Sequence record: OQ845958.1
DNA: 64,000 nucleotides
Source: Escherichia phage pEC-M719-6WT.2
Strand: one strand, 5' to 3'
The notes beneath the pieces are model-generated. The model was not told the DNA's origin. It saw only the letters and a program-made list of their open reading frames with translations, and did not search any database. Shown in pieces: positions 51,800 to 54,991 of this stretch; positions within the stretch are counted from its first letter, which is position 1; every line of letters begins with the position of its first letter. Position numbers and translations under genes: made by a program.

Positions 51800-51893
51800 G
51801 TTTTGGAGTTGAGTTTGCATTGCTTTGTATTTTCGCGGCAATCGCAGGTGTGATTGTTGGTATGTTTATTGGTAATAAGATAGATAAAGACTA

Positions 51894-51916
51894 GGACCCT
51901 TCGGGGTCCTTTTTTA
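51894..51916 (+). terminator. intrinsic terminator GGACCC-ttcg-GGGTCC + TTTTTTT
   Basis: UUCG hairpin plus 7 T after gp52 and a 32-aa overlapping membrane peptide ORF. Confidence 0.65.
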
Positions 51917-52236: not shown

Positions 52237-52845
52237 ATGAACAAGCTAAATTATATCGTTAAATGCTCCCAGAACGCTCTACATGAGACTGATGTTAATG
52301 CTCTGGTGTTTGTATACAAAAACAACTTCGTGCGTCCTGAGGTTGTTTTAGGCCAGCAGAACACGTCAATTGATAGCGTGCAGACATTGTTGAATAACAA
52401 CTATGTTGAAGCTTCTGGTGATGGTTTGATGGTTACAGAAAAAGGTGTTGACCTTATTCTGGATGCAGCTGAACTGTGGGCGAATGAAAATAATCCTGAC
52501 CTTCTGGAAGTGAAGAAGACAAGAACAAAACGCGGTGTGACTGATGAAATGGAAGCGACTGCAGAATATATCAAAGAGCAATTATTGTCTATTGGTATTG
52601 ACTTTAAGAGCATTTCAGAAGACCGCAGCAATCTGATTGTGAAGTTCAAGCGTATCAAGACATTAAAACAGATTGATGTACGTCGTGATGGTCAGATTCG
52701 TGTGCATGCGTATAATACTGAACAAAAGATAGTAAAACAGTTTACAGACGTGGGATTTAGCGTTAAAGTAGGTGGATTGAATACCTACATTGACAATCAT
52801 ATGTCAACTGAAAACATTCAACATGTTATTAACATCTTAAAGTGA
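52237..52845 (+). CDS. motA: middle-transcription activator MotA
   Basis: 202 aa; segments (ASGDGLMVTEKG, VKQFTDVGFSVKV) match remembered T4 MotA; position after gp52. Confidence 0.78.
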   Translation: MNKLNYIVKCSQNALHETDVNALVFVYKNNFVRPEVVLGQQNTSIDSVQTLLNNNYVEASGDGLMVTEKGVDLILDAAELWANENNPDLLEVKKTRTKRGVTDEMEATAEYIKEQLLSIGIDFKSISEDRSNLIVKFKRIKTLKQIDVRRDGQIRVHAYNTEQKIVKQFTDVGFSVKVGGLNTYIDNHMSTENIQHVINILK

Positions 52846-52852
52846 GGAAATT

Positions 52853-53182
52853 ATGAATAAGCTGAATATTGTTAATGAATTGCGTGCTTGTGTAGAACCC
52901 ACTCAAGAGGGTTGGGATGTTTGGTATCATGGCGCTTACCTTGGAACTATTGTCAAGGTCAAAGCTGGTCAGTATCTTATCCATCGCCAAGATGATACAG
53001 CACCATTTGGTGCTCGCAAGAACTTCATGGCAGCGATTGGCGCCTTTGTTCCAGCAGCATATGAAGTCTATAAAGCTGACTATAAAGAATACCTGGAATC
53101 ACAACCAGTTATTCGCTCAATTGGTGTTAATAAAGCTCAACAGAAAAGTCTGTGGCAACGTGTTAAAGGTTGGTTCAAATGA
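52853..53182 (+). CDS. hypothetical protein
   Basis: 109-aa ORF. Confidence 0.4.
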   Translation: MNKLNIVNELRACVEPTQEGWDVWYHGAYLGTIVKVKAGQYLIHRQDDTAPFGARKNFMAAIGAFVPAAYEVYKADYKEYLESQPVIRSIGVNKAQQKSLWQRVKGWFK

Positions 53183-53517
53183 TTCCTATGGAACTAAACT
53201 GGGATGGCGAAGGTCATTCCCTTAAATTGATTGAAGAACAACGTAACGCTTGGGATGAGCGCTGTGCCCTGGTGAATGGTATTAAGAAAACTTATCAACT
53301 TAACCTCCAGATTGATAATGTTACTCTTGAATTTGGTATGCAGCTATTGCGATTTCTTGAGCTTATTTTTACGGAAAAAGTGAATATAACTTCGTATGGC
53401 GAAGGCAAAACAGTTGATATTAAATTATCATCCTATTATAAAGGTGATTTAATTGAAACCGCCGCTAAAATTCAAGAATTCGCTAAAGATAACGGTTATA
53501 AGGTGATTTTCAAATGA
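53170..53517 (+). CDS. hypothetical protein
   Basis: 115-aa ORF. Confidence 0.4.
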
Positions 53518-54125
53518 ATCCATTAAAAGGTAAAGCGTTATCCTTTAAAGACCGTATGGCCTTGTTAGATAAAGCTCTTTCTCGGGAGACTCCTGAAAGT
53601 CTCGCTGCTAAATTACATGCATACGGTGATTACACCGAATATAATGAAGAAGGTAATTGTGAAATGAATCCGTTTATCACTCGTTTAGAAATGTTACCAG
53701 CACCAGAATCGCGTGAAACCCCCAAAAGCCTCGCTGAAAAATTTAAAGCACATGGATACACATGCGATGAAAAAGATATTCTGGAAGAAGTCCCGGAAAT
53801 CTGTTGGCAGATTGCGCATTGGAATAACAATGAAAAATATCAGCGACGGATTGTATGTGCCGCCAACCGATTTAAGTTAAAAGATGGTGGGACTCTGGTT
53901 ATTCCTGGTGCCAGACATTATTCCAAGGATATGGCAGAAGTGCTTGACCAAGTAAGTGATAAACTTGTGTCAGACCATGTTTGTGGTGATAATCAAGGAT
54001 TCATTGACCAGTACAGCAATTACTGGACCCGCGAAGAAGCAATGATTATTGCGACTTATGCAAATCAAGTGCGTATTGAACGTGGCGGTAGTGAAAAAGA
54101 ACTTTATTCAGAGGACCTTTATTAA
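53514..54125 (+). CDS. hypothetical protein with internal tandem repeat
   Basis: 203 aa; [16 protein letters not shown] and [16 protein letters not shown] repeats; C-terminal CAAN...GARH motif. Confidence 0.45.
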
Positions 54126-54403
54126 TGAACCTTAAACAACTCCAGATTGATGCAATCGAAACCCATATCAATCATATCAAACGTCTGAACACTATGATGG
54201 AAGACAACTGGGGAACTTATGTTAACCAGCCGGCTTGGGATGCTTTAGACCATGAATATATAAAGGATATTAGTGATAACACGTATAGAGTTAGAGAAGG
54301 TCTGAAACCCTTCCTACGTGATATGTATATTGCAACTAATAAAGAAATTATCAGTTCTCTTGAATATCAATTAAGGAAATTGCATGAACAATCTGGTAGC
54401 TAA
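54125..54403 (+). CDS. hypothetical protein (T4 arn position)
   Basis: 92-aa ORF upstream of asiA; size equals T4 Arn but no sequence recognised. Confidence 0.4.
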   Translation: MNLKQLQIDAIETHINHIKRLNTMMEDNWGTYVNQPAWDALDHEYIKDISDNTYRVREGLKPFLRDMYIATNKEIISSLEYQLRKLHEQSGS

Positions 54404-54715: not shown

Positions 54716-54991
54716 ATGACTAAATTTGAAATCGTTTCTGAAATTGTTACTATAACTTCAATTTTGATTAAAACCGACCGGGAAGATATTACGATGAAGC
54801 GCGATGTGTTTATCGCGTTTTTGAATGAGTTGGGATTGAGAAATGAGAATGGGAATGAGTTAAACAATGTATCGTTTAACAAATTGTTTAAAAGTTTATC
54901 TGAAGATGAAATTGAACAAATCATTGAACAATTTAACGAAGGATTCGAAGATATACACCGTTATCTTATGATGTATACCTCCGGATTCTAA
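54716..54991 (+). CDS. asiA: anti-sigma70 factor AsiA
   Basis: 91 aa; EIVTITSILIK...FIAFLNE...EQFNEGFE..HRYL.MYT matches remembered T4 AsiA. Confidence 0.85.
   Translation: MTKFEIVSEIVTITSILIKTDREDITMKRDVFIAFLNELGLRNENGNELNNVSFNKLFKSLSEDEIEQIIEQFNEGFEDIHRYLMMYTSGF

Follow-up and report, generated by a model that had tools for sequence, protein, structure and literature searches.

Homology of an N-terminal module of T-even phage Arn.3 to the antitoxin CmdA, and a rare arn.3 allele with two N-terminal modules

We analysed a window of 64,000 nucleotides from Escherichia phage pEC-M719-6WT.2 (OQ845958.1). By homology and gene order, the open reading frame at 53514..54125 of this window is the arn.3 of a T-even phage of the Gaprivervirus type. 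Its product begins with two modules, and the first is clearly homologous in protein sequence to the pair of helices at the N-terminus of CmdA, which is the antitoxin in the CmdTAC defence system. As a candidate role we tentatively favour that of a stable antitoxin surrogate for toxins of the CmdT type, which is the single most likely mechanism among those considered. The gene family itself is known and uncharacterised, and the double-module allele is rare.

Background

CmdTAC, the system also designated PD-T4-9 (PMC9519451; PMC11618068), is a toxin-antitoxin-chaperone defence system that restricts T-even phages specifically (PMC11618068), and it is carried by P2-like prophages. The toxin CmdT ADP-ribosylates the N6 position of adenine in GA dinucleotides of mRNA, the antitoxin CmdA consists of two N-terminal helices followed by a long disordered tail and an AA degron, and CmdC is a SecB-like chaperone (PMC11618068). 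In infected cells CmdC is titrated by the capsid protein of T4, and CmdT is freed once ClpP has degraded CmdA (PMC11618068). A CmdA stabilised by a change of AA to DD can neutralise CmdT with no need of the chaperone (preprint 10.1101/2024.02.24.581848), and a stable protein that bears the same module could in principle do likewise. Mutants of T4 with an extension of Alt.-3 escape CmdTAC by blocking the degradation of CmdA (PMC11618068).

The functions of arn.1 to arn.4 are given as unknown in a preprint of June 2026, and data for T2 in the same preprint place the expression of arn.3 on the middle arn transcript (10.64898/2026.06.19.733364).

Locus and gene identity

A preliminary description of this DNA, made from the letters alone, had reported a 203-aa open reading frame between motA and asiA. 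The frame is present on the + strand and both flanking genes are confirmed by Pfam. The locus is laid out as follows.

52237..52845: motA (Pfam MotA_activ/MotCF; PHROG agrees)
53500..53506, + strand: Shine-Dalgarno-like AAGGTGA of the main arn.3 start, 7 nt upstream of the ATG (sequence inspection)
53514..54125 (stop included), + strand: arn.3 homologue, 203 aa (ORF list; Pfam PF26092 T4_Y16D; phrog_839)
54716..54991: asiA (Pfam AsiA; PHROG agrees)

The gene order is gp52, small ORFs, motA, an arn.4 homologue, a 115-aa ORF, arn.3, an arn.2 homologue directly downstream of it, two small ORFs and asiA, with two ORFs between motA and arn.3 and three between arn.3 and asiA in the ORF list. The synteny of T-even phages, that is, motA/arn.4 on one side and arn.2/asiA on the other, is present here. 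The ATG of arn.3 at 53514 and the stop codon of the ORF before it overlap within the sequence ATGA. The opposite strand from the arn.3 locus carries holin t, gp38 and gp37. The region is 99.1-99.4% identical to Escherichia phages ECML-359, TH40, EAWsc9 and TH41 and ~94% identical to Shigella phage SP18; EAWsc9 and SP18 are classed as Gaprivervirus, Tevenvirinae, and the homologue is named arn.3 in the annotations of SP18 and JS98.

The frame had also been placed in the interval where T4 has arn-family ORFs. This is correct insofar as it lies in the arn.x interval and is an arn.3 homologue, but the name is positional only and the protein has no similarity to Arn. A tblastn search of the 64-kb window with the Arn of Bas35 found no homologue (best E = 0.86, away from arn.3), and on such comparisons Arn.3 is unrelated to Arn. 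The label 'anti-restriction nuclease' that appears in UniRef and GenBank is carried over from the positional gene name.

Similarity of module 1 to CmdA

The part of the protein that resembles CmdA is a short N-terminal module.

53538..53633, + strand: N-module 1, residues 9-40 (PADLOC PD-T4-9_B, BLASTP, CmdA HMM, tblastn, AF2 helices)

The PADLOC profile PD-T4-9_B matches residues 9-38 with E = 2.5e-10, over profile positions 2-31 of 77. A cmdTAC operon was located in a P2-like prophage of E. coli N2250 via a cloning primer listed in the supplement of PMC11618068; its genes match PD-T4-9_A, _B and _C at full length, the middle gene covering 77/77 positions of PD-T4-9_B. Residues 9-40 of Arn.3 are identical to residues 2-33 of this CmdA at 19 of 32 positions (BLASTP, E = 2e-9), and the identity rises to 21/32 with other CmdA variants (range 59-66%). 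When the window was searched with CmdA by tblastn, module 1 was matched with E = 2e-7, and an HMM of nine CmdA N-termini had arn.3 as its sole match in the six-frame window (E = 5e-12; next best 1.4). The CmdA N-terminal HMM matches 37 of the 277 proteins of the Arn.3 family at E < 1e-5, at the N-terminus in every case, a homologous module being present in many T-even phages of enterobacteria, and the residues that are conserved among CmdA proteins are those retained in the phage module.

Of the 13 occurrences of the back-translated word RMALL[DN]KAL in 2.9 million IMG/VR viral contigs, seven are in cmdA genes, four are in arn.3 genes and two are due to chance; the seven cmdA genes all have cmdT and cmdC on their flanks and span two CmdT clades. 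At the DNA level the module is identical to cmdA at 51-58 of 96 positions, and only 7-9 codons are common among the ~20 identical residues (19-21/32). The low DNA identity and the few common codons argue that the similarity is old and maintained by constraint on the protein, and that it does not stem from recent transfer. A blastn search of E. coli genomes with the module DNA gave no match, a tblastn search of phage records with the module returned arn.3 genes only, and a protein-database search with the 50-aa N-terminus returned only one 30-aa fragment.

Beyond the module the two proteins part. Arn.3 has no chaperone-addiction tail, the long unstructured region by which CmdA binds CmdC, and carries module 2 and a folded domain (pLDDT above 90) instead; it has no C-terminal AA degron for ClpXP, ending in ...LYSEDLY where CmdA proteins end in ...LDLAA or ...LDQAA; and tblastn with CmdT and CmdC found no cmdT or cmdC neighbours in the 64-kb window, while the genuine cmdA loci that were found all have both. 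Arn.3 is therefore not a member of the CmdA family in the functional sense, and the N-terminal module alone is common to both. By analogy with TAC antitoxins and from a published AF2 model we infer that this N-terminal region is the toxin-neutralising part of CmdA. No mention of the homology between CmdA and Arn.3 was found in the CmdTAC papers that were consulted.

The proposal of the preliminary description that the gene serves in host interference gains unexpected support, together with a link to ADP-ribosylation, from the N-terminal module, since its homologue is the antitoxin of a toxin with ADP-ribosyltransferase activity; this support does not come from the C-terminal motif. The homologies found with confidence include no characterised family outside host interference.

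Tandem N-terminal modules

The two 16-aa repeats noted earlier are real. They lie at residues 23-38 and 66-81, are identical at 11/16 amino acids and 33/48 nucleotides, and give a local score of 64 against 23.9 +/- 4.1 (max 45) in 2000 shuffles (z = 9.9); the similarity is wider than had been described, reaching ~40 aa and starting from MNP... on the side of module 1. The features behind the repeat are the following.

53650..53655, + strand: internal Shine-Dalgarno-like AAGGTA, 8 nt before the ATG at 53664 (start-context comparison)
53653..53783 (approximate), + strand: extra segment relative to single-module relatives, net +123 nt (SP18 DNA alignment)
53664..53789, + strand: N-module 2, residues 51-92, of the diverged, proline-containing T4/P0009 type (protein alignment)

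In a global DNA alignment with SP18 the gene is longer by a net 123 nt, in frame, between flanks that are ~95% identical. The extra segment holds the 3' end of an arn.4-like gene, an RBS, an ATG and a T4-type N-module; its context, AAGGTA...AAATGAATCC, mirrors the start of arn.3 itself, AAGGTGA...AAATGAATCC, and alignments with the T4-type arn.3 genes of BASEL phages begin at the start codon AAATGAATCC (~78% nt identity to Bas43). A donor arn.4/arn.3 junction of the T4 type, complete with RBS, ATG and N-module, has thus been inserted in frame after the module already in place. The resulting allele is made up of a module 1 of the Gaprivervirus/Mosigvirus type, a module 2 of the T4/P0009 type and the C-domain, and the two N-terminal modules explain why the protein has 203 aa instead of the 153-162 aa of single-module relatives. 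The internal ATG at 53664 is a possible start, which would give a 153-aa product of the T4 type.

Structure prediction, which had been suggested as a check, gave with AF2 a confident C-domain and two helices in module 1 (residues 11-23 and 27-36); one helix is predicted in module 2 (residues 70-79), and residues 42-65 are disordered. Module 2 has no score with PADLOC or with the CmdA HMM. The module of the T4-type protein P0008 scores weakly against the CmdA models (E about 1e-2 to 1e-3), and both module 2 and the module of T4 itself have diverged, with prolines (NVPLS, PAPES) in their sequences and a weak score against CmdA or none.

The N-module and the C-domain recombine independently, as in Bas38, which differs from Bas43 almost only in the module. 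Mean identity is 0.59 for the N-module and 0.63 for the C-domain, and with divergence so similar there is no clear signal of diversifying selection. Other phages have arn.3 fused to the N-terminal part of the 115-aa ORF that here lies upstream, and one IMG/VR contig (L038) carries two complete arn.3 genes in tandem.

There is close to an even chance that the duplication is a neutral recombination scar, in which illegitimate or homeologous recombination between two arn.3 alleles left a second 5' cassette in frame, and that module 2 adds no function or that the 153-aa product of the internal start is the working protein. The allele is limited to four closely related phages among 50,697 phage records, ECML-359, TH40 and EAWsc9 being among its carriers, the insertion brings its own RBS and ATG, and cassettes have been shuffled at this locus in other phages too, by fusion to the upstream ORF and in the tandem genes of L038; the divergence, the prolines and the lack of a CmdA score in module 2, together with the disorder predicted for residues 42-65, fit the same explanation. 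Against it, the frame is intact and 99.3-100% conserved in the four independent isolates. A scar is moreover compatible with either of the functional hypotheses weighed below and does not exclude them.

Conserved C-terminal domain

The arn.3 product is matched by phrog_839 (PHROG 839, function unknown) with E = 4.4e-77. The Pfam family PF26092, which bears the name T4_Y16D and has no assigned function, is carried by all 144 of 144 database homologues, and the identical protein P0001 has a precomputed PF26092 match.

53793..54122, + strand: T4_Y16D domain, residues 94-203, ending in LYSEDLY (AF2, invariant residues)
53844..53918, + strand: motif CAAN...GARH, residues 111-135, in the first beta-hairpin of the conserved domain

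In the AF2 model, made with the family alignment, the C-domain of ~110 aa consists of two beta-beta-alpha units with a pLDDT of 93-98 over residues 94-190. The CAAN...GARH motif picked out in the preliminary description is present and is indeed the best-conserved part of the family: R111, A116, A117, R134 and H135 are invariant in 113 homologues, and H135 is the sole invariant residue across 148 diverse family members. The family core of ~95 aa can be written RIVCAA..R...G.RH...QGF.DQ.G.F..R.EA..IA..agQ...LFSEDLY, the last element at the C-terminus, and its motifs (RIVCAA..R, G.RH, QGF.DQ, ..R.EA..IA and the LFSEDLY C-terminus) are all present in the arn.3 product. The invariant polar residues R111, R134, H135, Q161, D165, Y170, R173, Q185, S199 and E200 suggest a pocket or an interface.

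A profile of the 113 homologues retrieved 2923 cluster representatives from 1.84 billion proteins. The T4_Y16D core is often a stand-alone protein and sometimes stands behind unrelated N-terminal regions; many family members are without the N-module or have different N-termini, and one distant member has an RMF-like N-terminus. Pfam and PADLOC scans of the 148 diverse members found no recurrent partner domain. The two genomic contexts of the family that were examined are ORF arrays in which most frames are unannotated and no bacterial genes can be recognised. In 185,579 species genomes of bacteria and archaea, a scan limited to a pattern turned up the C-domain on one MAG contig only.

The C-terminal segment had been said to recall loosely nucleotide or ADP-ribose binding folds, and this found no backing among solved structures by Foldseek, by sequence or by profile. 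The best Foldseek match of the model in the PDB had E = 0.13, and the family profile returned from the PDB only COP9 and eL18 (E >= 0.2). Matches to DNA_gyraseB, AcrIC5, Prok-E2_B, HisH and an oxygenase, obtained with a Pfam set that did not contain the PF26092 model, with NCBIfam and with PDB sequences, were dismissed as sub-threshold noise. Fold matches in BFVD were uncharacterised phage proteins only, plus weak matches to 'large polyvalent protein associated' domains. On the predicted model the T4_Y16D fold is apparently new. A fused toxin-antitoxin, with a C-domain related to CmdT, is ruled out by an hhalign probability of 0.15%.

Host range and module type

Efficiencies of plating on cmdTAC were taken from the source data of PMC11618068, which cover one CmdTAC variant (ECOR22) in K-12, and arn.3 was compared in 11 of the 12 BASEL T-even phages (all except Bas37).

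Bas35: resistant, EOP 0.85; CmdA-like, non-proline module (MKTFKERLELLDLAL...)
Bas38: resistant, EOP 0.32; CmdA-like, non-proline module (MKTFEERLEMLNVAL...)
Bas39 to Bas45: sensitive; T4-type, proline-containing module
T2, T4, T6: sensitive; T4-type module, typed by tblastn identity only
Bas36: sensitive, EOP 5e-6; strongly CmdA-like module (MKTFKERLALLDKAL...)
Bas46: sensitive, EOP 3e-5; CmdA-like module

CmdA-like modules are thus found in both resistant BASEL phages and in two of the nine sensitive ones; with T2, T4 and T6 added, the latter figure becomes 2/12, and Fisher's test, which ignores phylogeny, gives p about 0.07. Bas36 and Bas46 are CmdA-like and nevertheless fully restricted, which rules out that the module is sufficient for escape from the CmdTAC of ECOR22 in K-12. 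Alt.-3 is identical in the resistant phages (Bas35, Bas38) and in sensitive BASEL phages, and the Alt.-3 extension is for this reason ruled out as the cause of the natural resistance.

Discussion

If Arn.3 is an antitoxin surrogate, it would act as follows. The protein would be made from the middle arn transcript. As infection proceeds, the capsid protein would titrate CmdC and ClpXP would destroy CmdA, whereupon the CmdA-like helices of Arn.3 would bind the freed mRNA ADP-ribosyltransferase CmdT, or a variant of it, and translation would continue. The folded C-domain would take the place of the unstable tail and would provide stability or a second activity, and the tandem non-identical modules might, more speculatively, widen the range of toxin variants that can be bound.

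The surrogate role draws on the homology to CmdA, on the two helices predicted as in CmdA, on the fact that CmdTAC is aimed at T-even phages and on the result with stabilised CmdA. It draws further on the independent recombination of module and C-domain, the module being absent or replaced in many family members, and on the naturally CmdTAC-resistant Bas35 and Bas38, which have non-proline CmdA-like modules and the same Alt.-3 as sensitive phages. The main evidence against it is the restriction of Bas36 and Bas46 despite their CmdA-like modules; in addition, module 2 has no CmdA score, and the C-domain, which makes up most of the protein and is better conserved than the rest, is unrelated to CmdT.

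Several phage proteins and RNAs are known that substitute for antitoxins or inhibit toxin-antitoxin systems, among them T4 Dmd against RnlA/LsoA, the pseudo-ToxI of phiTE, T4 TifA against ToxN and T7 Gp4.5 against Lon. Arn.3 would share with them the proposed logic, in which a stable neutraliser from the phage takes over once loss of the host antitoxin has set the toxin free, but it differs from them as a candidate whose recognisable sequence homology is to the toxin-binding part of a protein antitoxin only, and here that part is grafted on an unrelated conserved phage domain. T4 Alt.-3 is likewise a small T4 protein able to blunt CmdTAC and has no sequence relation to Arn.3. With CmdA (Vassallo et al. 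2022, 2024; Mets et al. 2024) the likeness is confined to the N-terminal helix pair of ~32 residues, whereas Arn.3 resides in a lytic phage, is fused to a folded domain and lacks the attributes of the prophage operon (tail, AA degron, cmdT and cmdC); an antitoxin role for Arn.3 is a candidate only. T4 Arn.3 is the same gene by synteny and sequence, the C-domain being ~80% identical to that of the T4-type P0008 and all conserved motifs being common; it has, however, a single diverged, proline-containing module, where the protein described here has two, the first strongly CmdA-like and of the Gaprivervirus/Mosigvirus type.

The main rival, which is possible and carries nearly equal weight to the surrogate role, is shared ancestry without any role against CmdTAC. 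It holds that an old, portable two-helix module, inherited or exchanged by CmdA and Arn.3, serves the C-domain in oligomerisation, regulation or targeting to some other partner, and that T4_Y16D acts on another target, possibly in translation or RNA metabolism. In favour of shared ancestry are the restriction of Bas36 and Bas46 by CmdTAC and the age of the DNA divergence from cmdA. It also suits a C-domain that is the conserved and widespread part of the protein (2923 cluster representatives, many of them stand-alone) and is rich in invariant polar residues, as is typical of an enzyme or ligand binder, and the RMF-like N-terminus of one distant member counts in its favour as well. On the other hand, the module is absent in many members and so is dispensable for the C-domain, it recombines independently of that domain, the residues kept in the phage module are those conserved in CmdA, and outside Arn.3 the module occurs in one protein family only, an antitoxin whose system is specialised against this very group of phages.

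An elaboration of the surrogate role, which we regard as improbable, is a two-part counter-defence against TAC systems that ADP-ribosylate RNA. Here the CmdA-like module would dock on toxins of the CmdT type, tandem modules would give coverage of several variants, and T4_Y16D would supply a new activity, for example erasing ADP-ribose from N6 of adenine on mRNA or blocking the RNA cleft of the toxin. In general terms, phages would then use T4_Y16D as a common effector and exchange the modules that target it (CmdA-like, RMF-like and others).

There is equally little chance that the CAAN...GARH region is a nucleotide or ADP-ribose binding or processing domain, which might remove ADP-ribose from RNA, or else a factor that counters restriction by systems of the McrBC type: a pocket is suggested by the invariant residues (R, H, Q, D, Y, S and E), fusion to the module of an ART antitoxin makes an ADP-ribose-related activity conceivable, PMC11833690 reports no eraser of N6-adenine ADP-ribosyl RNA and the weak 'large polyvalent protein associated' matches in BFVD point the same way, but the domain resembles macro, ARH, NADAR, Nudix, Rossmann or ART proteins neither in fold nor in sequence and has no similarity to Arn, the 'anti-restriction nuclease' labels being inherited from gene position.

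Conclusions

The homology gives arn.3, a gene conserved across T-even phages, a concrete molecular hypothesis that is open to direct test and tied to CmdTAC, a defence system whose mechanism has been studied well. T4_Y16D, a large family specific to phages (about 2,900 clusters at 50% identity), apparently has a new fold and is a worthwhile target for structural and biochemical work. If the module neutralises some CmdT variants, the phage would have copied only the toxin-binding part of an antitoxin, minus its degradation signals, and there would be a reason for the recombination hot spot, with its several allelic cassettes, at the 5' end of arn.3. Should it not neutralise CmdT, the common module would still bear on the origin of the CmdA antitoxin.

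Alt.-3 and natural CmdTAC resistance

Extension mutants of Alt.-3 are a known route of escape from CmdTAC, and the alt.-3 loci of four phages, Bas35 (L040), Bas38 (L041), Bas36 (L042) and T4 (L039), were compared. Alt.-3 is 96 aa long in all four, and its sequence is the same in Bas35, which is resistant, as in T4, which is sensitive, and likewise the same in resistant Bas38 and sensitive Bas36. Because Alt.-3 is identical within each resistant/sensitive pair, the known escape route does not explain why Bas35 and Bas38 naturally resist CmdTAC.

CmdTAC loci

A complete operon was found in a P2-like prophage of the E. coli N2250 chromosome:

L003, 2447-3660: complete cmdT-cmdA-cmdC operon

Its genes are annotated merely as "hypothetical protein" (twice) and "SecB", and they are flanked by DinI-like/replication-endonuclease genes on one side and a portal gene on the other. 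A second CmdTAC clade is represented by two IMG/VR loci (L034 and L037), in which CmdT is approximately 61% identical and CmdA is 81 aa long with the C-terminus LDQAA.

Neighbourhood and annotation of arn.3

The following features of the window lie within or near arn.3:

51893-51910, both strands: strong GC-rich hairpin (AGGACCC-TTCG-GGGTCCT) with a T-run behind it
53170-53517, + strand: 115-aa ORF upstream of arn.3 (phrog_14178)
53941-53965, + strand: putative MotA-box middle promoter (pattern match TGCTTGA, spacer, TAAACT), inside arn.3 and upstream of arn.2
54125-54403, + strand: arn.2 homologue, directly downstream of arn.3 (E = 1e-19 against Bas35 Arn.2)

Arn itself, which inhibits McrBC, had no detected homologue across the whole 64-kb window. 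The middle-promoter pattern is enriched as a class: nine sites in the window match it where 2.9 would be expected. The hairpin comes just past the small ORF that lies downstream of gp52 and has the look of a terminator acting in both directions. ECML-359, the closest relative, has a GenBank entry (OL631482.1) in which no CDS is annotated at 160890-161160, which corresponds to window 53560-53830 and covers the double-module part of arn.3; the TH40 and TH41 records carry no annotation. The label "YqfC" given to the 115-aa ORF in EAWsc9 is a wrong name.

Possible rearrangement of arn.3 and its modules

One IMG/VR contig (IMGVR_UViG_2974741249_000001) carries a tandem pair:

L038, 1796-2284: first arn.3 paralogue, complete
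L038, 2370-2867: second arn.3 paralogue, complete

The two differ in allelic type, each has a CmdA-like module, and arn.2 and holin fragments are likewise duplicated on the contig. The arrangement is either real allele stacking or an artefact of mixed-population assembly.

In a single distant member of the T4_Y16D family (P0232), an N-terminal segment (residues 57-91) fused to the T4_Y16D domain resembles Pfam RMF, the ribosome modulation factor (score 26.0 bits, slightly below the 27.9 cut-off; E = 9e-6), and this one case hints at a translation-related theme.

The 115-aa ORF upstream of arn.3 shares its N-terminus with Arn.3 homologues that other phages encode (P0021, P0040, P0023 and P0050), where this stretch forms an N-terminal extension joined to the CmdA-like module. 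This sharing suggests that fusion and fission of 5' cassettes have occurred more than once at the arn.3 locus.
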